This document shows positions 1,816 to 55,033 of a stretch of DNA of 64,000 nt, piece by piece. Source of the DNA: Candidatus Taenariivivens baikalensis (GTDB lineage Bacteria; Omnitrophota; Omnitrophia; Omnitrophales; Aquincolibacteriaceae); contig SICL01000003.1 in the NCBI GenBank assembly GCA_009691445.1, positions 25,834 to 89,833 of the forward strand. Direction: 5' to 3'. The stretch's first letter is position 1, and each line of letters begins with the position of its first letter. The translations under genes and the position numbers were made by a program. The notes under the pieces are model-generated. The model did no database searches. It was not told the DNA's origin and saw nothing but the letters and a program-made list of their open reading frames with translations.

Positions 1816-4800
1816 ATGCACCCATCATCTTTAACTCCTATGGATCTATCCTTGTTAAACAATGACATCCCGCCCTTGCTACAAATGATTTCGTCTTTTA
1901 GTGAAACAGAAATCAGCCGCTTGACGGGGGGAGTTAGCTTCAGAAAAGGCTGGGATTATTTGCAGACGAAGAGATTAGAGGATTTTTTTTGGGGAGAAGA
2001 ATCCATCAGCCTTTGCGCAAAAATCAGAGGGACAAATCTTTATCAAGTCACTCTAACCCAGAATCAAAAAAAAGATAAGATCAAAGGCCATTGTTCATGT
2101 CCTGCCTGGAATAACGGGACAAACTGCAAACACGTTGCCTGCGCTCTCCTAGGGATCCTGCAGTTGATCAAACCTAATTTCAATCAAGGAAATATCAATT
2201 TAGATTATCTTGAAAAAATGCGGGTAAAAATTATGAGTTTCCCAACTCCTGCAGCCACGACACAATCCGGATCTCCCCCGTTGGAATCTCAGACCAAAGG
2301 TCTTGCGATTTATCTTAAAAAAAATCAGGCAGGGGAACTCACCGCTGAATGCAAAAAAAATAATCGCCGCGTCAACGCACTCCGGTTGGAAAACACTCAT
2401 GATTTCAATTCTCCCTATCACCAGGAAGCTTCCAGCACCGAGGCCACTGAGCTAGCGCTTTTCGACTTCCTTCATCAGGCCCAGAAAGACCCTTTTGAAC
2501 TTTATGTTGAAACGGACCAGGGTGTCTTAAGAGCAACCTGGGATCCCCACCTACAAATCGAAACGGAGCTTTCGCTCCATCTGATCTCCGAACAAAATAT
2601 GGAAATCAGATGCGTTCCTTCAAAAGATTCCAAGCCTCTCCAGAATTTTTATCAACTCGGACGCTGCCTGTGTCTGGATTCTGAATCAGGAAACCTTCAT
2701 TTTGCCGAGGATTTGTCGGCCCTTAGCTATTTTTATGAACTTAAAATGAAAATCAAAAAGGATTCGTTTCCTGACAGCGATATCCTTGACCCAAAACCCC
2801 AGTTTCAACCCATTGAATCCATCAAACTTTTTACCTGGGAATGGAATGATCTTGGCATTATCCTGTCACCAAATCTCTTTAAAAAAACCACTTTTTACAC
2901 TCAGGACATCCGGCAGGCCCCTGAGAGTCAAGCCCCTGAATTTCGGTTGGAAATTGAGCAGGATGTCAGGTCTCAAAATTCATACACCGTGCAAACTGAG
3001 TGGCAAATTAATGGCAAGCCCCTCGTTGCGAAGTACCATCCGATACGCGATCTTGTGAAAATGGTCATCAATCACCCCGAACTTTCGTCCATGTATCAAA
3101 GTGATAGAAACCGTGTGTATCAAGCTTTCCTTGAATTTCTAAATCTGCCCAGCCCTGAAGAACAAACATTATTTCAGACGAATTTCTTGAATTCACTTTC
3201 ATTTCGATATTACGAAAGAAAAGAAGCTCGTACGCTTTTTAAAATTCTGAACGATTGGCGTGACCCAAACCTCAATCCCCGTCAGCCTCTCATCAAAGAG
3301 GGTGCTTGGCAGATTATTGAGTACGACATCTTACGCGCATTTCGTTTGCTTGGAACAACGGGATTTGTCCTCAATCATTTGCCAAGCCTTGCTCTTCTTG
3401 AAAAAGAGGAGCGCATTTCAGTTTCAGCAAAGAAAGTCCTTTCCATCCTTCTGGATCTTAAGAAATCCGTTGAAGATCTAGGCGGATCCCTTTACTGGAA
3501 GAAAAAAGAGATCCTCGTTTCAAGTCTGGAAGTTTCGATTGACGCCTCGGTAAGCAATCAAGATTGGTTTGAAATTAGACCTGAAATCAAATTGAATGGA
3601 GAGCCTCTGAACGAAAAAGATTGGCAAAATATTCTGGACTCCACCTTTCTTGAAAACCAATCAGGGATTCATATTCTGGATTCCAATGCCCTTGCAATTC
3701 TAACCCGTCTGAAAAAATCCCTCACTTCCAAACCCGGAACTTTAAACTCCCGGGAATTCATCCCGATTCCACGGCTCGAAATCTTTGATCTCTTTTCACT
3801 GCGCAAGCTTGGAGCCCGGGTGCGATTCTCTGAAAATGATGAACGCATCCTGACCAACCTGATGCATCTGGAATCCATTCCGCCAAGAGAAATTCCGGCT
3901 GCATTTCAGGGGGAACTTCGGGATTATCAAAAACGAGGTTACGACTGGCTTTGCTTCTTATATGAACACCGTTTCGGCGCCTGCCTGGCTGATGATATGG
4001 GCCTTGGCAAAACGGTACAGGCCTTGACCCTTCTTGCCGGCCTTAAAGAGCAAAAGCTGCGAAGTCCTTTTCCCAATTCCAAAACGCCTCATCTAATTGT
4101 GGTTCCGCCCAGCCTGGTCTTCAATTGGGAGAATGAAATTAGAAAATTTTATCCCGATCTTCGCGTCAAACTTTATACACAGCCGGCGGCGAACTTATCC
4201 TTTTCCGATTGCGATATTGTCCTTGGAACTTATGACCGGGTCCGTCTGGATATCGAAGTGCTTAAAAAAATAAGATTTCACGTCATTTTGTTTGATGAGG
4301 CGCAGTGGATTAAAAATATTTTTGCGGCACGGACAAGCGCGGTCCGCCAACTCAAGGGAAACTTCAAAATTTGTTTAACCGGAACCCCCCTTGAAAATCA
4401 CGTGGGGGAGTATTATTCTGTCATGGATCTTTGTCTTCCAGGTTTACTGGGAAACCCTAGAGAATTCCGGTCACTGGCCCAAGAGCAAAACAGAGCCCTC
4501 TTCCTGGACCGAACCCGGCCCTTTGTTCTGCGGCGCCTCAAACAGACCATCCTTAAAGAACTTCCCCCAAAAATTGAAACCGAAGTTTATCTTGATCTGA
4601 GCGAGGAACAAAAACAGCTTTATCACAAAATGGTCAACGAAGTGCGAAATGAAATTGCCAAAGCCTATTCCAAAAAAACGGAGTCACAGGCGAGAATTAT
4701 TGCCCTGACCGCTATTTTAAGGCTTCGCCAAATCTGCGTTTCCTCTCGTTTGTTAAATCCGGATTCTAAAGAACTCTCTCCGAAACTTGAATTCATGACC

Positions 4801-5295
4801 CACAAACTGCTGGAACTGCAGGACGAAGGCCACGCCTGCGTGGTTTTTTCACAATTCACGCGTTTTCTCAACCTCGCGGAAGAAGCACTCAAGAATGCTA
4901 AACTAGACTTCATAAGGATGGACGGAAAAACTCCCATTCCAAAACGGAAATTCCTTGTTGAGAATTTTCAAAATCCAGAAGGACCTCCCATTTTTCTGGT
5001 CAGCCTTAAAACCGGAGGCGTCGGACTCAATCTAACCCGGGCAAGTTATGTCCTTCATCTGGATCCCTGGTGGAATCCCGCCGTGGATCAGCAGGCCTCT
5101 GACAGGGTGCACCGGATTGGACAGACGCAGACCGTCTTCATTCACCGGATCTTGATGCGCCACACCATTGAAGAAAAAATGATGAGCCTTCGCCAAAGTA
5201 AACTCGAACTCTTCAAAAGCATTTTGGATGAACAGTCCAGCACGGGACCCGATCTAAAAATTACTAAAGCGGATTTTGACTTTCTCCTTACTTAA
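1816..5295 (+). CDS. SNF2-family helicase with N-terminal SWIM zinc finger
   Basis: SWIM-like CxC...CxH (CSCPAWNNGTNCKHVACALL); SNF2 ATPase motifs DDMGLGKT (Walker A), DEAQWIKN (DEAQ box), C-terminal helicase domain (LVSLKTGGVGLNLT, HRIGQTQ). Confidence 0.85.
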   Translation: MHPSSLTPMDLSLLNNDIPPLLQMISSFSETEISRLTGGVSFRKGWDYLQTKRLEDFFWGEESISLCAKIRGTNLYQVTLTQNQKKDKIKGHCSCPAWNNGTNCKHVACALLGILQLIKPNFNQGNINLDYLEKMRVKIMSFPTPAATTQSGSPPLESQTKGLAIYLKKNQAGELTAECKKNNRRVNALRLENTHDFNSPYHQEASSTEATELALFDFLHQAQKDPFELYVETDQGVLRATWDPHLQIETELSLHLISEQNMEIRCVPSKDSKPLQNFYQLGRCLCLDSESGNLHFAEDLSALSYFYELKMKIKKDSFPDSDILDPKPQFQPIESIKLFTWEWNDLGIILSPNLFKKTTFYTQDIRQAPESQAPEFRLEIEQDVRSQNSYTVQTEWQINGKPLVAKYHPIRDLVKMVINHPELSSMYQSDRNRVYQAFLEFLNLPSPEEQTLFQTNFLNSLSFRYYERKEARTLFKILNDWRDPNLNPRQPLIKEGAWQIIEYDILRAFRLLGTTGFVLNHLPSLALLEKEERISVSAKKVLSILLDLKKSVEDLGGSLYWKKKEILVSSLEVSIDASVSNQDWFEIRPEIKLNGEPLNEKDWQNILDSTFLENQSGIHILDSNALAILTRLKKSLTSKPGTLNSREFIPIPRLEIFDLFSLRKLGARVRFSENDERILTNLMHLESIPPREIPAAFQGELRDYQKRGYDWLCFLYEHRFGACLADDMGLGKTVQALTLLAGLKEQKLRSPFPNSKTPHLIVVPPSLVFNWENEIRKFYPDLRVKLYTQPAANLSFSDCDIVLGTYDRVRLDIEVLKKIRFHVILFDEAQWIKNIFAARTSAVRQLKGNFKICLTGTPLENHVGEYYSVMDLCLPGLLGNPREFRSLAQEQNRALFLDRTRPFVLRRLKQTILKELPPKIETEVYLDLSEEQKQLYHKMVNEVRNEIAKAYSKKTESQARIIALTAILRLRQICVSSRLLNPDSKELSPKLEFMTHKLLELQDEGHACVVFSQFTRFLNLAEEALKNAKLDFIRMDGKTPIPKRKFLVENFQNPEGPPIFLVSLKTGGVGLNLTRASYVLHLDPWWNPAVDQQASDRVHRIGQTQTVFIHRILMRHTIEEKMMSLRQSKLELFKSILDEQSSTGPDLKITKADFDFLLT

Positions 5296-6180: not shown

Positions 6181-9100
6181 GTGACCTCCGTTCCGAAAAA
6201 AATGATGAAAAATCTTCCTAAAAAATCAGTCGCCCTGATCACGGGAATTGCCTTTGCCGTCACCAGCTTTGTCGCTCCCGCGTCTTATGCCGCACCCGTT
6301 CGCTTGACGGTACCGGGTACCGCCGCACCGAGTACTGCGCCGATGCCCAAAGAGTTTGGAGAAATTGTCTCGGAATATCACACCCAGGGAAATCAGACTT
6401 CTGTCTTTCTTATCCAGGATGCTCACGCAATACCAGAAGCACAAAAAAACATTCAAAAAATTATTCGTTTTCTGGCAGACAACTACGGCGTTCAAACCGT
6501 CGGCGTTGAAGGTGCTTCCAAAGAACTCGATACACAAATTTTTAAAAGTTTCCCGGATGCAAAGCGCTTGCAGGAAGTCTTTGATGATTATATGGAAAAA
6601 GGGGAACTCACGGGAGCGGCGGCGGCTGCGATTTTTAGGCAAGGAGCAGAGAGCAAGGAGCAAGGAGTCAAACCCCATGCCCCAAGCACCATGCTCCATG
6701 CTAAGTTTTATGGCTTAGAAGACCAACCCCTCTACGAAGAAGGCCTGAAGCTTTATCAGGAAGCGGCAGGGAAAGAGGCCGACCTCAAGACGAAGTTGGA
6801 AGTTAGAAGTAAGAAGTTAGAAGAAGAGAAGACGAAAGCGTATTCCAAAGCATTACTTGCGATTGATGAAGTCTTGGGTGCTTTCAATGAAAATCACGCA
6901 AATCTGACGGATGTCCTCTTTCTTCTCTCCAAAATCCGCAAACCGGAAAAGGGAAGTGAACTCCGGGCCATTCTGGATGAAATGAAACTTGAGAAGTCGG
7001 ACCGGACTTCGAGTGTGATCCAGGTGAGACGGCTTGCAAAAGAAGTGGAATGCGAAATGACGCAAAGTGCAAAGCGCATAGCGCATAGTGAAAAAAATTC
7101 AGAAAAACGCTTTGCCCTTAGCGCTATGCTCTATGCCGACTTCCACGCTAAACTCCAGCAATTCAACACTTCCCAGCTCACGCCTCAAGCATTTGCGTTT
7201 TATCTCAAAGAAGTGATCACGGAAAACAAGTTACCCCTGAAAGTATCCGATCATCTGCTCGGATTAGTCCGCCATCAAAAAACAGTTCAGGAAATTCAGG
7301 GAACAAAGCTGTTCAAAGATCTTGAAACCTACGCAGCGGCCATCAAAGAATCCCTTTTTGAAAATGCCGGACAGCGGGACCTCGATCGCAAGACGCATCA
7401 GCTTCAGCTGCTCACCAAACTCACAAAGCTTGAGCTCGCGAGGGAAGAGTGGGAAGAAGTAAAAAGGTTAGAAGTCGGAGGTTGGAAGTTGGAAGGAAAA
7501 TCGTCTTCACTTCAAACTCCTCATCTGTCTTTCTACCGCAACGCCGAAGCCCGGGAACGAGCCTTCCTGACGAAGTTAGACGTTAGAAGTTCGAAGTTAG
7601 AAGAGAAAAACCGCAGAGGCTCGTTACTTCCATCCTCCAACTTCAAACTTCAAACTTCTATCGTGGTCGCTGGCGGCTTCCACACCCAGGGCCTGGCCCA
7701 CAATCTCAAAGCCCGTGGAATTTCCTATCAAGTCATTATGCCGCGTATCCAGTCGCTTCCTGAACAGTCTTCTTACCGGGAGCAGATGAAAGGGAATGTT
7801 TCGTGGTCTTCTTATATGAAAGCAAAAGATGGACGGGTTAATTTGTATGAAGCTTTTACACGCGCTACGCGCGATAAACTCTTGAAGTTAGACGTTAGAA
7901 GTTTGAAGTTAGAAGAAAAAGAAGGAAATCAACCTGTCCAACTTCCGACCTCTAACTTGCAACTTCTTAAGCCTTGGCGAGACCAAATCCTAATCGACCT
8001 CGCTCAAACCGAACAGCTCGACAAGGCCGGAGAGTACACGCGGTTCATTGACGAAATCAGCAGAGAGCATAGTGCAGACCTGCCCGCCGAAGCGAAGCGG
8101 CAGGCGGGGAGCAGAGGGTCTGACTCTATGCCCTATGCCCTTAGCTCTATGCATCAGAAGTGGCAAGCCGCCGTTAAAAAATTTACCGATGGAATAATCC
8201 GCCTTGAATCCCAGGGCCGGTACACGCCGGATAATATCGTTCGCCTTCTTCAGCCTGCGACGATTCTTCCTGAAACGGGATTGGGACAATTTAATCCCGG
8301 ACAAACCTTTCCAGTATTTAGAGAAGGTCCGATGAGCGCGGAAGGGTTAACGGGTAAGCCGGTGCGCGGGTTCACGGGTACGAGCGCTCGCATACCCGCA
8401 TACACGCGTACCCGCACACGACAACCTCGCTCCGAAGCAAGAAATAATCTGCAATTAGGAGGGCCAAATGGAACGATTCGGTGGGTAGACATGAAATGGG
8501 GAAGCCAGCAGCTTCAACTTTCAGAAGCCATTCAATCTATGAATGATCCTGACATAAGCATAGCTCAAACCATAAAGGCCATAAAAGATTTTTATCTTGC
8601 GATTCAAGAAAGCGGAGAGGACGGGATGTATGATAGCATCGACAAACAGGATATCCTGACTGGGAACCTGCCTAACTTTTTACGCGCCTTGGGGATGCCC
8701 AAAAGCGACTCCGGAGAATCATTAACAGAAGCAGAAGCTCAATTTTCTTTTAATTATTTAAAAGAGCGATTCCATGATTTAGAATCTTTGAACGTTTCGT
8801 TTACAGGTTTGAATAATCCCTCTCTCAAGATCGAAATCTACTGGTGGATTTTTGTGCTTCTGTTAGTGGCTGATCACAACACGGCATCAGCGTCATCCGC
8901 CGACATTCAGGCTCTTTCAGAGACTGAAGAACTTTTGGCTCTGCTGATCTGTGCTATTTCCAGCGATCATGTGAGAGGACAAATTTCACAAAATCCCAAG
9001 GATTTGATTGAATCAAGATTGCTGGACTTGACCCGTACACAGCCTTTGCTTGGAAAATCCATTTCGAAAATCATGCGGCATTGGGATCCTTGGATTTCTG

Positions 9101-12100
9101 AAGGACAACGGATATGGATGGAGGCGGTGCATGCGGTCGGAGATGCCCAAGATGGGCAAGACTTTGAGCTGAAACCGGATCGTGCTGTTTCCGAGGCCTC
9201 GAAAGCCAAAAGATTATTTGATAAACTCACCGAATTAACCAATGTGTTAAAACCCAGTAACTCGGAAGAACTACGCCATTGGAATGAGCCTCTTACCACA
9301 GCCGTTGAAATAGCCTCTCAAGCGGAGACCGTTTTATTTGACGGTGCTCGTGCGGCTTTTTTGGGGGCAAAACAACCCGGATCTGATTTCTCCTGGGGAA
9401 CGGATTTTCAATTTTCGTGGCTGGAAGAAATGGCCCGGAAGGGTTGGAAACAAATCGCGTTTGTTGTAGATGATACCTACACCAAGGATTTGATCACTTT
9501 TTTTCCTTCTGAAGATCAAATCTCCGGCGATCAAATGGTTCTGAGTTTGGAAAAATACCTACATCTTCCTCAAGAAGCAACTCTGCGTGATTATTTACAT
9601 CTGCCCAAGGAGCATGAAAATCCAAGAGTGACTCGCGCGATTCAGTTTTGGCAAAGAATGAGAAGCCTTGTTCAGAAGCAAAACCTAAAAATTCATTTGA
9701 TTGTTTATCAACCTTTTGAAACGCACGAGCAAAACGAATGGCTTGAAAAAACTCCGGGTAAAAAGATTTTGTGGGATTCTTTGTTGGTTATGAGGCCTTA
9801 CAAAACAACCGGCATGGTTTCTATTGCGCAGTTTCTGACAAGAAATCAATACGAACAAGAAACCTTCAATCCGCCACTCGCCGTATCTTATGCGGCGCAT
9901 CAAGCCGCGATGGATCAGGGATGGGGGGAGTATCACTCAGTCGGATTCAAATTATCTAAACGCTTGGAAAATTTTATGCTTGCACAGCCTTTGATAAAAA
10001 CACCTCGTTCCATTTCTCTTGCGCGCCTGGACAGTGTGGATTTTTCAATTTATACAGGATCGGATGACGGAAAATTAGACGAGATGGAAATAGGTCTTCC
10101 CGAAGCTCCGGAAAAAGTCCCTGGTCCGAATGTTTTAGAACCCACCACCCGCTCCGAAGTGCGGGGCGGAGAAGGTGATTGGAGAACACGAGGTACGCCC
10201 ATCCAAGATTTTTCACGGCAAAAAATGGAAAAAAATGCTTATGAAGAGCTGGATGTTCCACGGAATGCAAGTGAGGATGAAATCAAAAGGGCATTTCGAA
10301 AACTAGCCGTTATCCATCACCCGGATAAAAATCCAAGTGACCGCCAAGGAGCGGAAGTGAAATTTAAGCGTTTAGGGGTTGCCTATGAACTTTTAATGGA
10401 CCCAGACCAGCGACGAGTCTATGATCAATTGCTTGATTCCAACTCGGCTCCGCGACCAAGCTCTTCCACGTTTACTGGTTACAAAGACCGGGCAGAAGTG
10501 CCTAACCGTGTCATGAGCTACGACGATATTGACAGGCACATCGACGAGATTCCCAAAGCACACCGGCCCAGCATCGGCTTTAACCTCGAAAGAGATCCAC
10601 AAGGGGGAGCCGTTTTGAACATTATCACAGAATACACGAAACAGTTGTGGAAGCAGGAAACGAACATTTTAGATTTTACTGCGCATAAAAATGAAGTTTT
10701 TATACTCCATCCTCGCTCCGCAAAGATAGCGGATAAACACGAGATTCATTGGTTTAATGGCTTTGGCTATTATCTTGTTTTATCCGAAGACGATCTCATT
10801 AAGTCATTTCCTGTCGTAGCTAAACGATTTGGATTTAAAAAGGAAATTAAAAACGATCCGCGCTTCATGACGCGGGTGGATATCTTCAATCAACTAAACA
10901 TGGATGAAAGTTGGAGTAAGCGAGGCAATTCCAAGCCTACGCTTCCAGGGATTAAAGCGTTAGTGGTTGGAAACCCGGGGAAAGATTTTTTGTGGATCTA
11001 TACGGAAATTTCGGCTGACCCTGTGGGAATCAATAACATTGTTGGCTTTTCACGTGAGCAGCACAACTTTTTTGTTCTTCATCACGATACGCCGGAAAGT
11101 CCTGAACCTATGATCTCAAGGTTTGATTCCGAAGGCCGGTTTGAACCCACTGTTTCCAGCGAGACGGTCTGGCCTGATTTTCCGGAGACAGCTTTGGAGT
11201 TCAAATTACCTCCGGTCAAAATAAAAATGAACGCCGAAGGACCGGCGATGAGAAGGGGGGAAATCATACTCCGGAATCAGGATTTATTGCAAGCTGCTAC
11301 GGCGGCCAGAATGAAGCTTGGGCCTCATCTCCCTCTAAATCCCGGGGATTTGGAAGTTGACACCAGGGAGAGAGAGCAGTGGTTCAGACGTAAACTTACC
11401 GGCGTTACGGCTTATACCATTTTTCAGAACCATTTTTTTGGGGTCAAACGCCGCGAGGGAGAGGATATCACAATTGCGCGGATTTCTGGCGATAACCCCG
11501 GAGCCGCTCAGCTCCTTAGCCGGAAAGAGCTCCTCGATCAATATCCGATTGTTGCGGCAGAATTCTCCCTCCGCTCCGAGGTGAGGGAAAAAGAGGTAGC
11601 GGGTTTGCGGGTAACTCGGTTAACGGGGGAACAGCCCGCCCCCGCCACTCAATCTTTGGCGGACAAGCGCACACAGGCTCACTCGCTCACCGGCACACCC
11701 GATTCCTCCCGTTCCGAAGTGAGGGGAGTCAGTAGCCGATCATTCTTGAAGACATTGGCCGTAGCTGCAAGCGCAATAGCTTTCCACCCACTCACCGCTT
11801 CAAGTCAGATGAATCCAGAAAATCAAACCATCAGCAAAATGCGCGATCTTTTTATTCCGGGCCGAGGAATTGATCGGACCACAGGGTATCCGCTTGATGT
11901 TGTGATCGGATCTGAAGGATGGAAAACAACTCAGCCCACGAGCATTGGTTTCCGGGCCGAAGAGCTGGCCTTATCCGCATCGAATAGGCTTCCCGTAAAA
12001 ACCGGCGGCGCCGCAACCGCGCAAGCCGAGGATCTTCAAACTCTCACAGAATTATTAACCCGGCTCCAAGGGGATCAAAAGTCGTCGCTTGCCTGGAAAG

Positions 12101-15100
12101 GTTTAATTCCCTGGTTCAAACTCACGAGCGAAGGGGCTGCCGCTGACCGAGATGAAATTGCCTACGTCGATAATGCCAATCTGTCAGGCAGTTTAATGGT
12201 CGTGATTGGGGCTTTACTTGAGGCAAAAAGAGCAAAGCCCCAACCATCCAAGGCCTTCGATGCCGCCATTGAAAAGGCCCAACAGATTCTGGATGCACAA
12301 AAAAAAGGTTACGAAGCGCTCTTTAATCCGGCGCGTGGACTTTTCCGCGGCGGGATTAAAAAATCATCCGGAGACTGGATTCATCCTAATTATTATATCG
12401 ATCGATTATTTTCTGAACATGCCGGAAAAACCGCAGCCATTATCAGTTACTTTGGTTTCGATGAAGCCGGATATACCAACCTCGGCCCCGCATTTCGAAC
12501 CCATACTTTCCGCGATCAGTCCACGGGCGACATTGCAGCGACCTGGGACGGTGGCGTTTTTCAATTTATTTGGAACTTTCCTTTTGTTGGCGATTCCAAA
12601 CTTTGGAAAACCTTGGCAGAAAATCATTTAAAAGCAATTACGGATGAGGCTCATCAAAAAAATCTTGGCGGAGTATTGTCCGCTTCCTGGGATGGCGCTT
12701 CTTATAATGCCGGAATTGGTCATGCTTTCCGTGAAAATAGCAATCCCGTCATCAAAAATAATGTCGCCTCGCTTTACAGTCTGGATGGATATACCTCAAT
12801 CTCTGCAAAAACAGTCGCCGCTTGGCGCTCGGGAATCGTAACCCAAGTTCCAGAGTTGATGGGACCCTACGGAAATTTTGATTCAATGACCGAGGGTGTT
12901 GTGAATTCGGGCGTCTATGTTGCGGTCGATCATTTATCTTCCATTTTAGGATCGGCGGCAGAAGCAAGGGCCAGTGCTTTTCGAACGCTGATGAAACAAA
13001 AAGCGAACCGTTACGAAGGCTTTCTTCAATTAATTGAAAAACCTCTGCTTCACGCTCAAACCAGTCATCCCAACGCTTTTCAAAAACTTAACATTGATTA
13101 CGCGCCCGTTCCTCAGGTTAAAAAAAATAAGCGCAGCGTGAGCGATGTACAGATCGTGGATAAGGGAAAAGTGATTAAGGCGGATGAAAAGAATTCTAAA
13201 ATTTCTTACGCGGACATTCCGAATGGTTTTGGATTCACGTATGAAGCAGACGCAGGTGATTTTGCGGGAACCTTTGCCAGCTTGAATATGCAAAAACCCG
13301 CAGGAAAAAAGCTGTCGTGGAAATGGGAAAAAATTAAGAATTATCCGCTCTCACCCGTCGTGACAGTGAAACTTGAGTGGGGCGGCACGACAAAGTTTCA
13401 GCAAACATTGCAGGTAGATCTCTCAAACCCTCGCGCTGAAATTGAGCTACCTTCGGACACGCCATCCGGTTTTACCTTTGTTCTTGTCATTGATGCCTGG
13501 GATACCGCCAAGGGATTTCATAAAAGAAGACAGGCTCTCGGCGCCGCCAACTTTTCTCTCCGCTCCGAGGTGAGGGAAGACGAAGAGGCTATGGAGTTAC
13601 CAGACTCAGCAGGTTCGACGAAATCAATGGGTGAACTCAAGCATCCGAATATTCTGGCGACGTCTCGCGCACCTGACGCTCGTGCTGAGCTAAGAACCCA
13701 TGCACCCAAAGATCTTAAAATAGGGAAGCTTGATTTATCACTGTCGAGGAAATTTTTATCAAACGACTCCACTCTTGAGAGTTTTGCCAACGAGTTACTC
13801 AAGGCAAGCGTCCTGGCTCCCGACGACCAAAGAGTCCATGGAATAACAAGCACCTCACTGAGAGAATATGATCATTTAATCTCACTTGGTTTTTCTACGA
13901 ATACTTCAAAAGAGACCGCCGTTAAAAACGCCACGGACAATCAAAGATCGAAGATTCAGAGAGCTCTAACGCTCGCTAATATTTGGGATATTGCCTATGA
14001 TTCTAAGGCGCAACGCATCACGCTTACCTTGGATGGAGGGGAACTCCTTCTGTTTAATGCGCCTGGTGATAAAGAACTCGCGTTGCTATCTGCAAAATTC
14101 CGTCACCTGCTATCCAACTCTCAACCTTTAACCGCGAATACAGCGAAAAGGGCGGCTCTTTCTTCAGGACTTAATAGTTTTCTGACTTATCTTGATCACG
14201 GAACTATTTCACCCCTAGACGAACCCAGTGAGGTCACGGCTGATTTTTTTATTCCTAATCAAGCCGCAAAGCAAGCGATTCTTCATCATATGTCTCAAAC
14301 TTTTGGATCAGATATCGTGACCACGGGCAGGGAAGCCTTGGATCGTTGGCTCATGGATGAGGAATCCTATCAGCAGTCTTTAGCCCTTGCCGATGCAGCC
14401 CATACCAAGGCCCTGGCTGAGCAGACAATCTTGGATAAGCAAGCGGCCGTAGCTCGAGCCGCAGAGGAATTCCGCCAGGCTCAAGAAACGGAGGCCAAAA
14501 AACGGTTGCAAAAAATCCATCAAACAAGAATCAGACGAATCAAAATATCCGCCGCCATCGCGGGTGTCCTTGCGGCCTTCGTTGGGATTGTTCTTGCGGT
14601 GAATGCTTTCACCGCCCGCTACCAAAAAGCAAAAAACGAAACAAGACTAACTCATGCCGAAGATTCAAAGCAAAAAGAATTCAGAAAGCGAACCATGGCG
14701 ACTTTAGTCGCTGATTTCAGAAATAATTTTCCTCACCCGGAAAATTATGGGAGTTTTATTCAGCATCTCGCAGGTAAAAACAAGCTTAATCAAGCTTGGG
14801 ATCTTCCCGAGATTAATTCCTATGCTTTGATTAAGGATGTTTATGATTCCTTATCACGCATCGAGTACGAACCAAAAAGGAACAGCCTCACACCCGCACG
14901 ACGAGCAGTAGATCCTATATTTCTCGCTTTGATGGAACTGGAGACTCAACTGCCAACGGAAAAAGCGGGCGGTATTTCCAAGGTGATAGCGAACGCACGT
15001 CTTATCGAGAGCGAACAAAAAAATACTTTACTCCAGCATTTAGTAATTAATTCTCTAAATCTGGTCAACCAGTGGCACCAATTCCCAGAGACAGAACGCA

Positions 15101-18100
15101 TTAAAAAACTCAAGGACCTTCTCGTGGGTTATGAAGAATATGTCGCCGTGAAACTAAGTCCTGAGAGCGCCATGATTGCATTGAAACAATTAATTCCTCC
15201 TCACCTTTTCGGAAATACTCGTAAAATAATGGGCGCAAAGTTAATCGGTGCGATCATCCAGGAGACTCAGACTTGGGAACTTCTTACTCCATCCTTGAAT
15301 ACTGCGCTGATGTTCAATGCTGAGTTAATGATCGATTTTATGAAGGTGTCGCCCCCCAAACTCGATTCATGGACGCAACCGAATAAGAATCTGGACAAGA
15401 AAAAAGCAATAACGCTAGCGGATGCTCAATCGATGCTGGAATTGACCATAGAGGAACGACAAACAAATAGAACAACAGCCACTTTTATTATGAAAGAAGA
15501 TGGGATTTCCTTTACTGACATGATCGAAGCCGGATATAAAATTCTCGCCCAGGAAGATCCTCGAATTTCAAGAGACATAGTCTTCATTTCTCTCAATGGG
15601 AAAGTGTTTGCTAATGTTGCAGAATGCTTCGCCGTCCGAATGAAGGCAGGCGACAGGGCTCTCCTTACTTATCTCCGCTCAGAGGTGAGGACAAAGAAAA
15701 TTGTGGGACAGGATATTTCAACCCGGGTTAATCCATTACGTTCTGCAACAGTTCCCGCTGAACGGTTTCAACCCGCGTCAAAGTCCCACCAGGAACTTCG
15801 AAGACATGATCCGATTGCAAAGAGGTTAACGCCCCTAAAAAAACCGCAGGCGAAGGCGGGGCCCAATCTACCCCCAAATAATCGCTCCAAAGCGAGTATG
15901 AAACAGACGCCCGGAGAGCTGATCCAGCTCGCGAATGACTGGCTTGGGATGCATCTGTTAGTTTCCGAGCATGGAGTGACGTCCACGATTCACGTGGTTC
16001 TGGACTCGACGATCCAAAGGTCGACCGCGAGTCGAAAAGAGTATGATAATTCTATAGGGAACAACGTTGATTTTAATATTACTATCCGGGTGCCGACAGC
16101 CCAAATCACATCCGTGACAAAGCTTATAGCCCAGATTGATGGTGCCTTGAAAAGCAAGGGATTAGACGTCAGCACTCCCTCTCCCCACATTCCGGCAGAA
16201 GGAGAGATTTCCTGGTCTAGGAATCTGAAATCGGATATGAAATTTGACTTTGGACAAAATGCTTCTGATGAGGCGATTGGGGAAATGACGCAAAAGATTA
16301 ACAGGATTTTGAGGCGGCATCCCTTTGCCGGCTATAAGAATCTCTTTGCCGAACAGACACGCCATGAATTCTACGATAGTCATTTTGATGTGGAGATCTT
16401 GCCGGCCGGTGAACCTACTGTCGATCAGCCGAGAGGAGGGTATGTTGTGTATTCCTGGTGGAGTGGTATGCTCATTCAGGTGCGCGGGAACTTACTCACG
16501 GGTCCCAAGTGGAAGAAGAAGCTCGTGGAGGAAGTTATCAAACAATTTAGAAACTATGTGACCCGCTATAAAATGCGATTTTATGCACCAGCTTTAAAAA
16601 GAATTATACTCAAAGATCCGCCCTATCAAGGGCACTACTGGGGGGATCCTGACAGCGAACAGTGGAAGAGCTATCTAAGCAGTACGCAGGCACACGTAAA
16701 ACAAATTGAAGCCAAACTTAGAACGTTATTAAAGCCCCCCCCCGCAGTCAAGCGAGCTGAAGTGAGGACTCAAAACGATCTGGATCAGATGACCAATTAT
16801 CAAGATGTTGATATTTCGCAGATAGGCACGCACATCCGTGCGGAGCTGCGAAGTATCAATCTAAGCAATGCAGCAATGTCAACCCTCCGCCGAATGTTGA
16901 GTTTGACGGAAGCGGAACTGAACCCTCAAGGTTTGACAACGAGTAAGGTCTCAGCTATATATGTTTCTCCGGATGAGCGTGTTGCTATTGTGTTGCCGGG
17001 TATGTTGACGAGGGTGGAAGGTCAGACAGACCCACAACTTGTAAAAATCTTTCATTTAGTAGGCGCGGAAGAGGTCCAAAGTCATGGTGTACCGAGTAAT
17101 ATAAAGGATGTGTTGTTTCAAAATGGTGGCTTTACAGTCAGTTATTGGGATCCAACAAAAACGCCTGAAACCTTCCAAATTCTGGATCAAAAGCCGTGGG
17201 TTCAAAAAGTTGAAGACCGCTCCGAGGTGAGAAGTAAGAAGGCGACCGAGAGCACATTATCCGGAGGCCATACGAAAGTAGTTAAGCCACGCTTTGCGGC
17301 ATCGGCGAAAAAAAATGCTTCGGATTTTAATCTCCCCCCCGCTCAAAGGGAGCGCAATAAGAACTTGAAGAATGATTCGCCCCAGGACCGATCTGAGATT
17401 CGGAGAATTATTTCGGATGAGGTATTACGCGTGGTTTGGGCAGGAATGACAGGAGAGCCTGCAGAAAATGTTTCTTCCAAATCAGTTGGCCCTTTGACCA
17501 AAGTTTCCGCAAACGAGGCCGCTGAAATGATCATTGCGTTGAGTGAAACCTACTTCCAAAATCACGCGGCTGAAGTAACGGCATTCAGACAAACCGATCA
17601 AGTTTTAGCGGGCAGTGCTCAAAGGATTGCGGCGAAGATTGCGAGCCTCAAACAAACGGTTGTGATTCGCCAGACGCTTACAAATGAACAGCTGAAAGCA
17701 AGCGGTGATCCGCAGGCAGCCGTCCGTCAATGGATGAAAGCTGCCGGAAATTTAGCGGCATCCACCGATAAACTTTTGATTCACGTGACGCTTCCTGCCA
17801 ATTTCAGATTTAAAAATCTGGACTATAACCGGCTTGCCGGCTGGAAGGTCGTACCGACAGGGGACGGGGGATACGCGGTGGTTAATTCCACAGTGGATAC
17901 AAACGCCATTAACTTTAACAGCCTTATTCCCACACTAGTGATTTCTGATGAAGCGCTTGATCAAACCCAGGAAACACTCATTTCCGGCACCGACGCGCAT
18001 GGAAATAATCTGACACTGAAACCTGCTGATTTTGCCAATATTCTGACGGCGGGTGCCGGTTTTATTGCGGATAAACTTTCTTTGCGAAGCTGGATTGTTT

Positions 18101-18213
18101 CCAAAGGTTCGATTTCTTTCTTTGAAGATCAAAATGCCCTGGCTCATGCTGTTGATGCTGCACGTCTGATTCAAAGAGCTTTGGCTTCCAGAAGAACTGC
18201 GTACTCGGCGTAA
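6181..18213 (+). CDS. giant (4010 aa) secreted/membrane-associated multidomain protein with TraB/GumN/TIKI-like N-terminal region, embedded DnaJ J-domain and one internal TM helix
   Basis: uninterrupted 12 kb ORF; N-terminal signal-like peptide ([26 protein letters not shown]); [14 protein letters not shown]...VQTVGVEGA and later [19 protein letters not shown] resemble the GTxH...AGHL signature of the TraB/PrgY/GumN family; J-domain with HPD motif ([31 protein letters not shown]) at nt about 10234-10440; hydrophobic helix [22 protein letters not shown] at nt about 14540-14610; GTG start at 6181 (alternative ATG 6202). Confidence 0.75.
6640..6703. repeat. Family-B palindromic insert (agcaaggag.../...ctccatgct) in-frame inside the 4010-aa gene
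   Basis: agcaaggagcaaggag ... ccatgctccatgct is an imperfect inverted repeat; related copies at 7071-7137, 8061-8152 and 30586-30660. Confidence 0.6.
6790..6828. repeat. Family-C repeat (gaagttagaag iterations) in-frame in the giant gene
   Basis: gaagttggaagttagaagtaagaagttagaagaag; related to copies at 7466-7520, 7572-7659, 7884-7968. Confidence 0.6.
7071..7137. repeat. Family-B palindromic insert in-frame (gcgcatagcgcatag ... cttagcgctatgctctatgc)
   Basis: clear inverted repeat flanking about 30 nt; encodes ...FALSAMLYA... Confidence 0.65.
7466..7520. repeat. Family-C palindromic insert in-frame (ggttagaagtcggaggttggaagttggaag ... cttcacttcaaactcc)
   Basis: inverted repeat of the gaagtt/aacttc motif. 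Confidence 0.55.
7572..7659. repeat. Family-C palindromic insert in-frame (gaagttagacgttagaagttcgaagttagaag ... ccaacttcaaacttcaaacttc)
   Basis: long imperfect inverted repeat; arms encode [11 protein letters not shown] and NFKLQTS. Confidence 0.7.
7884..7968. repeat. Family-C palindromic insert in-frame (gaagttagacgttagaagtttgaagttagaag ... ccaacttccgacctctaacttgcaacttc)
   Basis: near-identical left arm to the copy at 7572; right arm inverted. Confidence 0.7.
8061..8152. repeat. Family-B palindromic insert in-frame (cagagagcatagtgcagacc ... ggtctgactctatgccctatgcccttagctctatgc)
   Basis: inverted repeat gcagacc/ggtctgac and gagcatag/ctctatgc; encodes ...MPYALSSMH... (compare MPSALSSML in the nuclease gene at 30586-30660). 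Confidence 0.7.
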
Positions 18214-23887: not shown

Positions 23888-24033
23888 TAACCAAGATACA
23901 AGGTACAAGAAACAAATAATTTCCAATTTTAAAAATAAAATTTCAAATGACCGTTTTTAAAATTAAAAATTGGAATTTTAATCATTTTTTGTATCTTGTT
24001 TCTTGTATCTTGAAATTTAAATAGGGCAATTTT

Positions 24034-29518: not shown

Positions 29519-30736
29519 TTGCCTGTCATGGAATACGGCGTACTAAGTACTGTGGAAAATAAAAACGCCAGAACTCAACGTGGTACGCAGCGCGCAATAC
29601 TCAGTACTGGTTATAGTTCCTACGCCGAACTTCGTGACAAGGTTCGGAAAACCCTTCTCGAAGGCCAGCGTAAAATTGAACTCGCAAAGGTCCAGACTTA
29701 TTGGGATACCGGCAAACACATTAATGAGCACCTTCGGATTCATGAAGGGCGCACCGAGTACAAAAAGAAAACGCTGATCAGGCTGGGTAAAGATCTTGAT
29801 CTGGACGACAGTGTCCTTCGGCGGTGCGCAGAATTGAAGGAGGGATTCCCGGATTTACCAATTCGTGCCGGCTGGCACAAATCTGGTAATAATAGAATAA
29901 TCTCTATTAAAAAATATCCCTGGGCCTGCTTACACTGGAGTCATTTTCGGGCACTTCTTCCTCTTGAGGACCTGAAAACCCGCTACGAACTTGCCGATCA
30001 AGCCGCAGAAAAAGGCTGGATTGCCGAAGAGCTCGAAGCAAAGGTGAGGAAGATCAATGAAGATATCAGAGAAAAAAATGGCGGCGGGGGAAAACATCCC
30101 GTTCGTCCCTCGGAGCTGCTGACGCCCAAACTCGGTAAAACCGGCATTTATCAAATGATTCAGGACGGGGACTCGCTGACCGTGGATCTTGGGTTCACGT
30201 CTTACTGCAAACTTCCCAAGAATCAGGCAAGCAAATTCAAAGCCGGGGATTACTGCCTTTGGAAAGGCGACGCGCCGCCGAAAAAAATCCAGGGTGCGCC
30301 TTCCGATTTATTTACTTACGAAGCCGAAGTGCTGAAAGTCGTGGACGGGGATACGCTCTGGCTCAAGATCTGGCTCGCGGACGATCTGTGGCTGAAGGAA
30401 AAGGTACGGCTGCGCGGTATCAATTGTCCGGAGATGGATACGAGGGAAGGGAAGGATGCGAAAAAATTCGTGGAGTCCGTCATTGCGAGCAGTGCGAAGC
30501 AATCTCGCATCCTTATTGCTACGACGAAGCCCGACAAATACGATCGCTATCTAACGGATGTGTTTTTGCCAATCAGCATGGAGCAGAGAGCAAGGAGCAT
30601 AGAGAATAAATCTTTGAACTCCATGCCCTCTGCCCTAAGCTCTATGCTTTTTCTAAACAACGAACTCCTCAAGCACGGCTTGGCCGAGAAGAAAACCAAT
30701 TACTCGTTTAGCGATTGGGGAGATTTGGAACGCTGA
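29519..30736 (+). CDS. fusion protein: DUF1016 (YhcG-type) N-terminal domain + staphylococcal-nuclease-like (SNase/thermonuclease) C-terminal domain; carries two in-frame palindromic inserts
   Basis: N-term: LHWSHFRALLPLEDLKTRYELADQAAEKGWIAEELEAKV matches the DUF1016 N-domain consensus (LPWSHYR.LL...D...R.FY...A...GWS.R.LE.QI); C-term: VVDGDTLWL...VRLRGINCPE...GKDAKKFVE...YDRYLTDVF is the SNase fold pattern (GDT...RL.GIDaPE...G.eA......V......DrYGR.la.V). Confidence 0.7.
   Translation: MPVMEYGVLSTVENKNARTQRGTQRAILSTGYSSYAELRDKVRKTLLEGQRKIELAKVQTYWDTGKHINEHLRIHEGRTEYKKKTLIRLGKDLDLDDSVLRRCAELKEGFPDLPIRAGWHKSGNNRIISIKKYPWACLHWSHFRALLPLEDLKTRYELADQAAEKGWIAEELEAKVRKINEDIREKNGGGGKHPVRPSELLTPKLGKTGIYQMIQDGDSLTVDLGFTSYCKLPKNQASKFKAGDYCLWKGDAPPKKIQGAPSDLFTYEAEVLKVVDGDTLWLKIWLADDLWLKEKVRLRGINCPEMDTREGKDAKKFVESVIASSAKQSRILIATTKPDKYDRYLTDVFLPISMEQRARSIENKSLNSMPSALSSMLFLNNELLKHGLAEKKTNYSFSDWGDLER
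30479..30530. repeat. Family-R palindromic repeat in-frame inside the SNase domain
   Basis: gtcattgcgagcagtgcgaagcaatctcgcatccttattgctacgacgaag; encodes VIASSAKQSRILIATT. Confidence 0.75.
30586..30660. repeat. Family-B palindromic insert in-frame near the 3' end of the nuclease gene
   Basis: gagcagagagcaaggagcatagag ... ccatgccctctgccctaagctctatgc; same family as the three copies in the 4010-aa gene. Confidence 0.7.
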
Positions 30737-32901: not shown

Positions 32902-35900
32902 CTATCCTTGAAGTAATCTTGCGAGCTCAGCACGTTTCGCTACAATTTGAGCGCGAAGTTCTTCCATTTCCCACTTGGGCCACAGTGAATATTCCGGCGC
33001 CATTTTGATTATATTTTGGGCTTGCAGGTCAAATTTACTTAAGCTTAAAAAAGATCCAGAAAATAGCGGCTGTTTGTATTCAATATCAAATATCTTCCGG
33101 TTCACCTCGTTTCTGACAGCTCCTACGGTGTTCATAATCGAAGAATAGGATTTAGGCGAGTTTCCGGTCGTTCCATCAAAACTACTTTCAATTTGCATGA
33201 TTCTTTCATGAAGTAATTTGAGATTTTCGAGATTGTTGTCTATGTGAATTTCTGTGTAGGTTTGATCGCTGACAATCACATAAGGATCCCGGTCTTTTTC
33301 TAGAACCAGAGAAATGGATTTGTAATATCCTCCGCGCCTGTCGGGCGAGCGTACGAATGAGGTCGAATTGATTTGTGTAGGGGCCACTGCCAGAGTGGTT
33401 TCGCCTATGGTGATCGATTGGCCAATGTCAGCGGCAGGTATCTCCCATGTCTGATTTCTCCCGGTTTCTTTTCCGGTTTCAGGATTGTAGGTGATGGCAA
33501 GGGCCATTACGACGGTTTGGGTATAGGTATTATAGTTTTCATCCAGCCTTTTTTGGAGATGCCCTTGCACGAAAGTATCCGTGACAATCCTGGAAGGTTT
33601 AGCTGTGGTGGAGTAGTAGCTAATTTGCTGCTGCGTTTCTAAGAGATTTTGGGAATCAAATATATCAATCGTTTTTTCGAGCAGATTCCCTCGTCCGTCG
33701 AATTGACTCACAGTGGTTTGATGAGGTTCTTGTGTTCCGGAGTCAAAAATAGTTAAAGTCTCCTGAGTGGGGAAACCTTGCGGATTAATTATCTTCACAG
33801 TTTTGCTTAGGATTTGATTTTGACTATTGGTCACGGTCTTTGTTTCGTTGACATTGTCATCAAAATCTTTCACGGAGATTGTTTCTACCGAATTTCCATC
33901 TTTATCAGTCGTAAAAGTTTTGACCGGAGGATAGATAATATCTATTTTTAACTCGAGGAGATGCTGCTCTCCTAATTGAACTTTTCCGGTTGCAGGATCC
34001 GTGATGATCGATTGGTAAGCCATCTGGACTTTATCTCCCCAAAGAAAGGCATAATTGATAACCACCGGCCGGCCTTGAGCGTCTTGATTAAACTCTTCCA
34101 TTCGGTTTCCCTGTGGATCCACAAGCATTACAGCTTGGGCTGTTTTATGAAAGATTCTAAAAGTGTTTCTGATCTGATCATTTGCGGAAGGGATCTTGGC
34201 GTAGTCTTCAACCAATAAAAGAAGAAACCTTCCATCGGGAGTGGATTGGGGAATGAATTTCGGATTCGTATAGTCCATCCGATACCAATAATGTTGTGCT
34301 AGGTTCTTATAACCCGCTATATAGAGAGCAAATCCAACTTGCAACCCATTCTCAAGGTTGTTGCTTTTGACATCGTAGCGCCAAAAACCTCTGGGCCAAA
34401 GAGAGATGGTATTATTCAGCGTAGTGGCTCGTTCATAAAAAGAAATTTTATCGATCACAAGACCACTTGGTTTCGATAAATCGATTTCAAAAAAGAAGGG
34501 ATTTTTTTCCCGGTCCAAACCCCCGGCAAGGGCTTTTGTTTTGGAACTCAAAATATCCACTCCGGTCATATCCATTCCGGTCCAAAGGGAATTTTTGAGG
34601 GTAAGTGAGCCTGGAGATTCTTCAAAAGTGATAATGCTTCGTCCGCTGGCAGCAACCAGCAGAGGAGTTCCCTGAGAATTTTGAGTCAGGGTAAGGTCTT
34701 TGATAGGACCGAGATTTGAAAAATGGCCTGAGGCCAAGCGGTGTGGTTCTTTGGGGTTGTTTAAATCCCAGCTTTCAAGGGTCACTCCGCCATCCGGTGT
34801 AATTTGAGTGACATAAACCTTGGTGCCAAAGGCATACATTCCGTTGACACTCTCAGATGGAATAGTGCCTTCCACTTGGCCGGTATTGGTATTCACAATT
34901 TGAATACCCGAATTACCGCCAAGGTGAACCAAGACACGGGCTGAGTCAAGAACTTCGACAAGGCCCGCGGAACGCTCCACTGGATTTTGGGAAGATGGAC
35001 GTGTGAGCTTTATCGTTTTTTCTAATTTCAGATTTTTAGGCTGCGTGACATCATAAATTTCTAATATCATTTCCTGCTCCAAAGCAGGAGATTGAGGAAG
35101 GGATTTAAGGATATAGGCTTTATTCCCGGCAAGGGCAAAATCTTTAATCTCTGCAGGAGAAGAGTTTGATTCCGGACGGATGGTGCCAATTTCAGGCCCT
35201 AAAGTACCGTTAAGATGGTCGGCATAGGCACGGTCGCTCAGATCAAAAATATGGATAGTTGAATCCGGGCTCATGACATAGAGATAATTACCTTGAAGTT
35301 TATAAGACCGGACGTCTCCTATATAGACCCATTTTTCTTTAACGTCATATGAATTCAACATACAGACTTGTTGATTGGCACAGTCCGAGTAATTCGACTC
35401 GGACACGCCAGTCGCGGAATGACCACTGTGGGAATCTGACATTACAGAAAAGATGGGGGTGGGCATAAATTCAGTGCCTTGGCCCAGGAAAGAATTTTTT
35501 TCGGGTTTACTCCAGGGAGCCGTTGGTACAGGATCAGTATTCGTAGGAGGAGGAGTATTATTTTTTTGTTCAAGGGCGGATTTTAAAGCACCTTCGGCAT
35601 TGAGAATTCCCTTTCCAAGATATTGATCGGCCGTATAGGGTTGTGCGCTTTTTGTCAGGTCACTTAAAATTTGGTCCGGAGTGTACTGGGGATTTAAGGT
35701 TTTGATCAAAGCGGCAACGCCCGCAACCTGCGGTGCTGCTGCGGAAGTTCCATTGTAGGAATCATATTTTTCTCCGGGCATCGTGGAATGAATTCCAATG
35801 GCAGGGGCTGCAATATCAACATCATTGCCATAATTGGATCCTGCTGTATCACCCGGTTTCGTTCCAAACATGGCCCGGTGGTCTGCTTTGTCAGTTCCTC

Positions 35901-38900: not shown

Positions 38901-40349
38901 AATTAAGATCACTGGAGAACCAAGATGCAGAAAATACTTCTTGTGAAGGAGCCGGGACTTTTGTCTGTAACGGAGTGGATTCTTCCCGTAATGTGTAATG
39001 GTTGACGACAAAAACTCCTCCGACATTTTCGATGGATTTATCTCCGATCTGGGTCAAAATATTCAGAGTGGAAGTCGAAGGCGATCGATTGGAAGCCGTG
39101 CCGTTTTTAATAATTTTTTCAAGCTGTCCGGCATTGTTATATTGGAAGTTCATCGTTTCGCCGTTGGAGGCGGTGTCTTTGACGATGCGGCCATTTTGAA
39201 TGATTTGATGATGGACCACTCCAGAAATATCTGTGGATTCAGCTTCGATAGGAATGATTCCCAGCCCATCAAACACCGATGCGATACTAGAAATGCTTTT
39301 TGATTGAGCTTCGTCTGGAACCCATCGTTCGCTGTCAAAAAACGGCGGTTGATTTCTAATCGAGGGCATATTGAAAAGGTTCCCGAAGTTTTTTAATGCC
39401 AAAGGATCCTTGGAAAGAGAAAAGATCACTTTGGCAGGAAGGACCTCGACGACACGAAAGAAACCGCTTGTGCCGCTTACGGCTTCTTTATAAGTCATTG
39501 CGGCTCCGGTCCCTTGGAGTTCGCCTACATTTTTCCAAGTTGAGGAAGAAAGATCAAAACTTTTTTGGATGACGTAGCGTTTTCCGGCAGATGAGTTAAA
39601 AGACACCTCAATTTTCCCCTGGTGGATTTGAATGGATGATTCCTTTGCTGCCAGGGCTGGGATTTCTGCGGTCAAACGCATGGTTTGAAAGTCAAAAGTT
39701 GCTTTTTCAAGACCTGGAAATGTGGTTGATCGAGGCAAAGTCATTACGGCCTGAAGCAGCCGGCCGTTTTCATATTTGAATTCAATTCGGGGCGCTAAAG
39801 GGTTATTGATAAGACTCGTGGCGTCTTGCCGGAGCAGAGTGCCTTTGGTGTCGAATGATTGCACGACAAAGTCAGGATAAACAATGACTTGCGGCTTTGT
39901 CGCTGCTACAGGATTCGGGGGCAAACTCGAAGTATTTGAAAGAGTTTCAACTGGGGAATTGGCTTGCGAGACGGCAGCATGAGAGTTAGATTTTTGAATA
40001 GAAGGAGTTGGACTTACCGGTTTTGAATTTGCCAGCATCCAATGAGTGGTTGAGTTGTCCATAGCCGTGGAAGTCGTCGTGTCCGTGGTTCTCGTTGAGT
40101 GTTCTATGGATGATGCTGTGGTTGTTTGAGTTCCGGCCTGGTCGCCGGTCGCCGTACTTGTTTCCATCGACGTGTAATTCTTGGTTTGGATATAAGAGGT
40201 CTTTTCATATTGAGTAGGAACAGATTCAGCCAGGAGAGCCTGCGGGCCTAAGGTCAGGCATTGGGCCATGAGAAAGACAGAAGCAATCAAAGCGCTCACT
40301 GATTTTTTAAAAGCCAGCTTTGAGTTTAAGAGGGCGAGAAGTTTTTTCA
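32902..40349 (-). CDS. giant (about 2480 aa) secreted multidomain protein with S8 subtilisin-like peptidase domain, Thr-rich linkers and an HExxH-containing segment
   Basis: S8 catalytic triad contexts VAFIDTGMD (Asp), HGTYVAGIIGA (His), GTSAAAPQVAGVAALI (Ser); signal peptide MKKLLALLNSKLAFKKSVSALIASVFLMAQ; poly-Thr tracts; IAHEAIHVLD (HExxH); the track ORF extends to 40521, but the Met at 40349 with signal peptide and upstream aaggtaagg is the more likely start. Confidence 0.8.
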
Positions 40350-40519
40350 TAGATCTGTTTAACCTTACCTTTTTAGCAGACCGCTCACTTATTAAGTAAA
40401 AGATAACCCATTGGAGAGGGAATACAAGAACCCCTTTAAGGGAGTTCTCATTTTTTATAAGGATAGTAAGATTATATGGGAATGTTATGAAATGATTGAA
40501 TTTGAGATTTTGAGATCCC

Positions 40520-40595
40520 ATGCTGCGTTTTTCATTTGATTTCCGTCTTTAGCAGGTTTAACCTGTCCCTCGAACGGGGACTGTCCCCTTACCTT
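40520..40595. repeat. Family-H hairpin repeat, copy 3 (short form), immediately upstream of the subtilase gene promoter region
   Basis: cgtttttcatttgatttccgtctttagcaggtttaacctgtccctcgaacggggactgtcccctt shares ttttcatttaatttc...ggtttac-ctgtccctcg-rcggggactgtcccctt with copies 1 and 2. Confidence 0.75.
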
Positions 40596-52137: not shown

Positions 52138-52160
52138 GGAAGCTAGGCAAATTAACCGAT

Positions 52161-54377: not shown

Positions 54378-54428
54378 TTGAGTACTCTAGCATAGGGGAA
54401 ACAAAAAAGGAACTCTCGCAGAAAAAAA

Positions 54429-54977: not shown

Positions 54978-55033
54978 GAAAAAACCTTTAGAAGAAAACT
55001 GAATCCTCTCTCATCCTAATGACCCTTCCGATA

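Follow-up and report, generated by a model that had tools for sequence, protein, structure and literature searches.

In-frame invasion of genes by palindromic repeats is, to our knowledge, documented mainly in Rickettsia. Rickettsia palindromic elements (RPE) reportedly form several families of short palindromes lying in frame in unrelated protein-coding genes, where they are said to add a surface-exposed peptide without destroying the host protein, and to vary in presence between relatives. The same behaviour is found in a 64,000-nucleotide stretch (the window) from Candidatus Taenariivivens baikalensis, of the phylum Omnitrophota (GenBank assembly GCA_009691445.1, contig SICL01000003.1, positions 25,834 to 89,833 of the forward strand). 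An open reading frame (ORF) at 6181-18213, encoding a giant protein of 4,010 aa with a signal-peptide-like N-terminus, contains within its first 2 kb seven repeat units of two families, B and C, spanning 6638-8152. The observation proves real, with strong statistical backing, and the analogy to RPE, first drawn in a first-pass annotation of the sequence, fits the behaviour of the units well: they are palindromic and in frame, and orthologues lack them, 9 of 10 in the case of two units of the giant gene and 9 of 9 in the case of a copy in an unrelated nuclease gene of the window.

Other described repeats share some of these features. REP, BIME and REPIN elements are extragenic by definition and linked to a RAYT transposase gene. 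The units described here resemble REP and REPIN in being short imperfect palindromes with multiple families per genome and concerted evolution within a genome; they differ in lying inside ORFs and in having arms made of heptamer arrays, and no RAYT gene was found among the window ORFs scanned (all but 52131-63251). In Nostoc, small dispersed repeats nested in heptamer arrays are said to be very small mobile repeats associated with tandem heptamers; they are reported from cyanobacteria, and are not known to be linked to in-frame insertion in a specific protein domain. Cyanobacterial STRR and TAACTGA heptanucleotide repeats lie for the most part between genes, as direct arrays and in many cases immediately before a start codon; where heptanucleotide repeats fall within ORFs, stop codons limit them in certain frames (PMC4679880). 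Tandem 7-nt units and this stop-codon constraint are common to STRR, other long simple-sequence repeats (LSSR) and the units in the window; here, unlike there, the arrays are mostly paired as inverted hairpin arms, inside ORFs and at conserved protein loops.

Both families were recovered where the first-pass annotation had placed them, with direct-repeat copies of family C at 6792, 7464, 7572 and 7884, of family B at about 6634, 7057 and 8048, and matching inverted partners. The family C motif GAAGTTAGAAGTTAGAAG, allowing up to 3 mismatches, occurs 14 times in the window (0.04 expected), 13 times within 6792-7966; the family B motif occurs 12 times (0.06 expected), eight of the matches lying within 6639-8152 and four within 30576-30647. 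A feature missing from the earlier description is that every arm consists of tandem heptanucleotides, GAAGTTN with NAACTTC in family C and GCAWRGN with NCYWTGC in family B. Head-to-tail runs of three or more copies, as in LSSR/STRR-type repeats, are present: the window holds ten period-7 runs, against 0-4 for periods 4-6 and 8-12. Eight of the ten are inside the giant ORF, at 6644-7915, and a further family B copy is inside the nuclease ORF, so that the distribution is not the predominantly intergenic one of LSSR and STRR. When folded, the stems show six pairs and then one mismatch at each seventh base.

All seven units had been taken for inverted repeats; folding bears this out for five, with one weak hairpin and one solo arm making up the rest. 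All lie on the plus strand. The most stable relative to expectation is B1 (6638-6702; dG -27.4, z -5.0), with left arm GCAAGGA, GCAGAGA, GCAAGGA, GCAAGGA and right arm CCCATGC, CCCAAGC, ACCATGC, TCCATGC; it is a 17-aa insertion common only to the homologue P0001. B2 (7062-7136; dG -25.7, z -2.9; left arm GCAAAGT, GCAAAGC, GCATAGC, GCATAGT; right arm GCTTTGC, CCTTAGC, GCTATGC, TCTATGC) occupies a slot whose length varies among orthologues. C3 (7570-7664; dG -24.5, z -2.0) has arms of 24 nt that are 88% complementary (left GAAGTTA, GACGTTA, GAAGTTC, GAAGTTA; right CAACTTC, AAACTTC, AAACTTC). C4 (7884-7966; z -1.7), in a slot between the motifs RDxLL and LLKxW, reads GAAGTTA, GACGTTA, GAAGTTT, GAAGTTA on the left and CAACTTC, CGACCTC, TAACTTG, CAACTTC on the right; it shares the GAC variant with C3, and the left arms at these two slots are near-identical. 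B3 (8059-8152; z -1.7; left GCAGAGA, GCATAGT; right CTCTATG, CCCTATG, CCCTTAG, CTCTATG) is again an insertion common to P0001 only, and the centroid structure of its loop includes a nested GC-rich palindrome, CCTGCCCGCC...GGCAGGCGGG, at 8079-8108. The weak hairpin, C2 (7464-7520; z -1.1), is a degenerate (GAAGTTN) array, 73% identical to the family C reference copy, with a short weak partner arm CTTCACTTCAAACTCC; its slot is variable, and in P0008 it holds a GAAGTT-type inverted repeat. The claim of an inserted palindrome fails for C1 (6792-6826; z +0.7), a solo array of five GAAGTTN units which has no partner arm, shows no indel against any orthologue (ungapped alignment), and sits in a confidently predicted helix (pLDDT about 90).

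As first noted, all units preserve the reading frame, since the host ORF is intact, and the linker peptides originally quoted for them are correct. The way in which the frame is kept open is informative. Read in the host frame, a perfect (GAAGTTA)n array would have a TAG at every third unit. In the four family C copies, the TAG-prone unit has instead TCG, TTG, AAG and TGG, each one substitution away from TAG, and in C1 a GAAGTAA stands in for the unit that would read as an in-frame TAG. By inspection, family B follows the same rule: the unit in codon phase 0 reads AGG, GAG, GAC or AAG, not TAG, while out-of-phase units keep TAG. Stop-codon avoidance thus accounts for the variable seventh base and for the periodic mismatch in the stems.

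Family B also has a copy in a gene unrelated to the giant ORF. This hairpin, B4 (30575-30650, plus strand; dG -32.6, z -4.3), encodes ISMEQRARSIENKSLNSMPSALSSML in frame within a DUF1016/SNase-like nuclease gene (29519-30736). It is missing from all nine nuclease orthologues, one of them syntenic at 67% identity, and when aligned to staphylococcal nuclease (SNase) it falls at the ADGK beta-turn. Its left arm is identical to that of B1 (the 6639 copy) at 26 of 29 nt, and its right arm matches too. The two left arms are read in differing frames, as QGAESKEQG in B1 and SMEQRARSIE in B4, and this production of unrelated peptides means that the repeat is one of DNA, not protein. A third heptamer family forms an intergenic hairpin between trpD and trpC of the trp operon (23892-24012, plus strand; dG -34.5, z -7.2), with arms composed of CAAGATA/CAAGGTA/CAAGAAA and TATCTTG units and an inner AT-rich palindrome. 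The first-pass annotation had proposed that absence of the motifs from elsewhere in the genome would tell against mobile-element-like behaviour; instead, family B recurs in the nuclease gene, and other Omnitrophota loci have hairpins of the GAAGTT type, including a near-perfect intergenic (GAAGTTG)n hairpin in locus L154 (-68 kcal/mol).

The shared properties with RPE are therefore stable hairpins (five of the seven units and the nuclease copy, z -1.7 to -5.0), in-frame insertion in unrelated genes with absence from orthologues, and location of the encoded peptides in loops, C1 excepted. Unlike RPE, the units are found in Omnitrophota, not in Rickettsia or Rickettsiales; are shorter (65-95 nt); have tandem-heptamer arms with a mismatch at every seventh base; and are concentrated in a hotspot within one domain, where different cassettes compete for slots. 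Host phylum and arm architecture set them apart from the Rickettsia RPE families, to which they do not belong; no kinship in sequence with RPE consensus families is expected.

The hotspot is a conserved N-terminal domain of about 700 aa (6181-8340, plus strand), with an alpha/beta core and a large helical region. It had been labelled TraB-like. This holds at the level of the fold, a fold search placing the core in the erythromycin-esterase/ChaN/TraB (Tiki-like) superfamily; it does not hold at the level of profiles, as Pfam TraB, GumN and ChaN find no match in the window protein or in 11 homologues, and PF04187 is present only in the distant match P0012. The proposal that the units interrupt the domain is only approximately right: what keeps the two halves of the core apart is a helical region, conserved and some 300 residues long, and not the cassettes. 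The N-terminal 720 residues have matches solely to Candidatus Omnitrophica proteins from metagenome-assembled genomes, the nearest being P0001 at 54-56% identity. In an AF2 model (pLDDT 71.9), the low-confidence segments are aa 155-171, 481-488, 573-594 and 628-656, corresponding to B1, the C3 loop, C4 and B3; for B1, C4 and B3, pLDDT is below 50. With B4 at its SNase beta-turn, and C1 as the exception, the inserts are predicted to lie in loops.

Comparison with orthologues shows how labile these slots are. The units at 6640 and 8061 are absent from nine of ten homologues, and the 7884 unit is also common to P0001; the remaining slots differ in length in every lineage. Against P0001, protein-level identity is 76-84% for B1, C4 and B3 (84% for B3) and 61% outside the units; other sequence stands in place of C1, B2 and C2 (10-23% identity), and C3 is missing. 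At both of the sites corresponding to the GAAGTT-type arrays at 6792-6826 and 7464-7498 of the window, P0001 has the peptide AVSSMQ. Back-translation of this peptide suggests a GCAGTTA-type array at each site, in which case two direct arrays 670 nt apart would have changed in concert.

A metagenome scan for the N-domain yielded 78 related loci, nearly all of them heads of very long ORFs; in several genomes the head is present as two or three paralogues (Ga0247727_10000046 and ORBV01000022 are examples). At the C4 slot, about 20 of 50 orthologues have a 17-aa loop and no hairpin, which is the basal state, and about 25 have hairpins, 7 to 45 residues longer than basal and reaching -54 kcal/mol. 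The heptamers in this slot differ by lineage (GACAAGA, GTCGCCC, GAGTCTT, AGTCGTG, GAGTTTN, AGCGGCG, AAGTACC, CTTCACG), and each left arm pairs with the right arm of its own lineage, not with those of other lineages (median score 10.5 vs 5.5). Across all slots, the 163 lineage-specific inserts that reach 8 residues or more were set against control segments of matching length: 23% of the inserts and 3% of the controls fold with z below -3, and 19% and 2.5%, respectively, show lag-7 periodicity, lags of 5, 6, 8 and 9 giving 0% in both. Even between orthologues at 77-79% nucleotide identity (L134/L173 and L138/L142), unrelated cassettes are found in the same slots, the replacements including other heptamer hairpins and GC-rich palindromes such as GGGGACAGTCCCC. 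At a handful of loops in this single conserved domain, cassette turnover is rapid, and avoidance of stop codons shapes the cassettes.

Several other palindrome families lie in frame in the same N-domain slots, including GGGGACAGTCCCC, GGTGCCAGGCAC, CCTGCCC...GGGCAGG and elements translating as HSERSEES; they were seen in L122 (P0007; 2180-2249 and 2539-2607), L129, L134, L138, L142 and L173. The CCTGCCC/GGGCAGG palindromes, which occupy slots in L142 and L173, resemble the one nested in B3. Omnitrophota genes appear to have been widely invaded by several kinds of small palindrome.

The concentration of cassettes in the N-domain is pronounced. Over the 78 loci, period-7 arrays occur at 5.9 per 10 kb in the N-domain, 0.32 in the upstream flank and 0.33 in the rest of the giant ORF downstream, an 18-fold enrichment. 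Ungapped stems with a score of at least 11 occur at 5.7 per 10 kb in the N-domain, 2.3 in the upstream flank and 0.76 in the downstream ORF (0.1-0.3 in shuffled sequence), a 7.5-fold enrichment of the N-domain over the remainder of those ORFs. In Omnitrophota giant proteins, this Tiki/TraB-like head domain is a strong hotspot for cassettes.

Outside this phylum, the component heptamers are widespread. Many phyla, and phage contigs too, have arrays of (GAAGTTA)n and (TCTATGC)n; the former motif was found in at least 119 loci, from Flavobacteriia, Acidobacteriota, Planctomycetota, Cyanobacteria and other groups, with none from Omnitrophota among the loci listed. An inverted partner is present in 18 of 120 (GAAGTTA)n arrays listed, and in all 18 the GAAGTT arm comes first, the opposite order being found in none. 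Viral contigs compared with the family B arms gave related heptamers as direct arrays only, and no hairpin. In Flavobacteriia, the (GAAGTTA)n arrays are often found immediately next to a start codon, a position also reported for TAACTGA repeats.

How did these units arise and spread? We lean towards regarding them as selfish, mobile or convertible RPE-like palindromic cassettes that are tolerated in surface loops. A cassette of the form (heptamer)n-loop-(complementary heptamer)n is seen at a surface loop or turn, where it has been added or has replaced a few codons. Only cassettes that bring no in-frame stop persist, the TAG- or TAA-prone unit being substituted at the cost of a mismatch at every seventh base. 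Cassettes may then be copied between slots and between genes, and swapped across families faster than the host gene diverges; candidate routes are a hairpin-recognising transposition activity, or ectopic gene conversion together with template switching between palindromes. They probably have no required role in the host protein, in which the left arm often seems to extend a helix and the loop and right arm to be disordered. Near-perfect copies of the same type also exist between genes (the trpD-trpC hairpin and that of L154).

Several observations weigh against this explanation. No transposase, Y1/RAYT or other, was found among the scanned window ORFs, and no target-site duplication, such as flanks the terminal inverted repeats of MITEs, is evident by inspection at the nuclease insertion or the C4 slot; transposition is therefore not established as the mechanism. 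Only one clear inter-gene copy, B4, is visible within the 64-kb window. C1 replaces a segment of a helix of conserved length without an indel, and so is not a simple insertion. The units common to P0001 are better conserved than the protein around them; neutral junk would not be expected to show this, and it is a hint of constraint acting on the nucleotides. Finally, simple tolerance does not obviously explain the hotspot, because the rest of the same ORF is 7-18 times poorer in cassettes.

Another possibility, which we think rather unlikely although it is the best of the alternatives, is that the units arose in situ with no mobility, by heptanucleotide slippage in indel-tolerant loops followed by quasi-palindrome template switching that copies one arm onto the other. 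According to PMC4679880, which cites Mrazek et al. 2007, heptanucleotides are the commonest class of long simple-sequence repeat in most prokaryote genomes. One slot holds many differing heptamers, and arms co-vary within a lineage; the AGTCGNN variants within one clade (L129, L147, L173, L176) resemble descent with modification; and no transposase was found among the scanned ORFs, nor any target duplication. Local origin does not readily account for a family B hairpin in an unrelated gene with both arms matching, for the near-identical left arms of C3 and C4 at two slots, or for the complete replacement of cassettes by unrelated ones between orthologues that are 77-79% identical. These features count instead in favour of mobile or convertible cassettes.

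The units might also be cis-acting mRNA or DNA structures that aid expression of very long genes, by translation pausing during export, protection of the 5' end of the transcript, or loading of an antitermination factor, any of which would explain their position in the first 2 kb. The 18-fold and 7.5-fold enrichments over the rest of the ORFs are in keeping with such a role, as is the higher conservation of shared units relative to the flanking protein. Several stem changes in one clade keep pairing by G-T/A-T alternation; a covariation count in one clade, based on small numbers, gave mostly wobble-type changes and one compensatory pair. Against a role of this kind, each slot is hairpin-free in many orthologues, stem mismatches comprise 27 G.U (G.T) and 45 A.C, with no sense-strand excess of wobble pairs, and the same type of cassette is found within a small nuclease gene and also between genes, in a spacer. 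An Rfam scan of the window gave no family match, and a tRNA scan of the window found none. We regard this explanation as doubtful.

A more elaborate version of mobility, to which we give little credence at present, is that the hotspot domain is a dedicated landing pad, at a few fixed loops of which a hairpin-recognising activity installs or exchanges heptamer cassettes. If so, the conservation of shared cassettes, the 18-fold enrichment and the 18-to-0 polarity of the paired arrays would all reflect recognition by a protein. Such a system would either diversify a domain exposed on a predatory or attachment protein or supply cis-structures needed for expressing genes of 12 kb and longer.

Classical contingency loci have repeat units whose length is not a multiple of three, in arrays within the 5' coding region, and the 7-nt units in the 5' part of a gene for a secreted giant protein match this layout: slippage could frameshift a costly surface protein on and off. 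This is very improbable. The arrays have just 3-5 imperfect units, the frame is kept across them in all 78 loci, and phase variation was rejected because the frameshifted copies (L156, L167, L184) have their breaks in homopolymer runs of A or T rather than in heptamer arrays. Least credible of all is that these are ordinary protein repeats under selection at the peptide level with incidental nucleotide palindromy: three heptamers would indeed give 21 nt and a 7-residue peptide period, and left arms are modelled as helix extensions, but the periodicity is 7 nt and not 3n, the arms are reverse-complementary, the B1 and B4 left arms encode unrelated peptides in differing frames, and the same loops hold different sequences in orthologues.

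Behaviour like that of RPE is now seen in an unrelated, uncultured phylum, with the additional features of tandem-heptamer arms, stop avoidance at every third unit as a visible mark of selection, and a reproducible hotspot. The finding connects heptanucleotide repeat arrays with intragenic palindromes, neither of which is well understood. In the published accounts of Omnitrophota giant proteins that were checked, a term search found no mention of hairpins, palindromes or heptamers. The related loci provide about 80 natural replicates in which gain, loss and replacement of cassettes can be dated against host-gene divergence. There is also a practical consequence: because they inflate and diversify loops, cassettes will confound alignment, domain annotation and structure prediction of these proteins.

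Other features of the giant protein were also noted. A canonical DnaJ (J) domain (aa 1352-1415, window 10234-10425; E 6.6e-22) is placed mid-protein in a product predicted to be secreted. The peptide motif R-[SA]-E-[VIL]-R occurs ten times (aa 1324, 1798, 1844, 2461, 2501, 3166, 3525, 3553, 3680 and 3737; window 10150-17403), and also directly after the N-domain in the homologues P0001, P0002, P0008 and P0011. It was considered as a further DNA repeat family (RSEVR) and rejected, since its codons vary, making it a peptide motif; it resembles a module-boundary motif, perhaps a polyprotein cleavage or sorting site. In L156, a second, upstream copy of the N-domain (548-2384) is split into three frames, and the two breaks examined are at A-runs; this copy is either a pseudogene or the product of homopolymer sequencing errors.

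Elsewhere in the window, two neighbouring perfect stem-loops, CTACGCTattAGCGTAG and CTTGCACCaatGGTGCAAG (41010-41062; z -5.8), are intergenic and upstream of a giant S8-peptidase gene (32902-40521, minus strand). The SNF2-family helicase ORF at 1816-5295 contains an in-frame 84-nt hairpin (3304-3387; dG -35.4, z -4.2) with arms of 21 nt that are 86% complementary. Possibly a further intragenic palindromic cassette, this hairpin is not built from heptamers.

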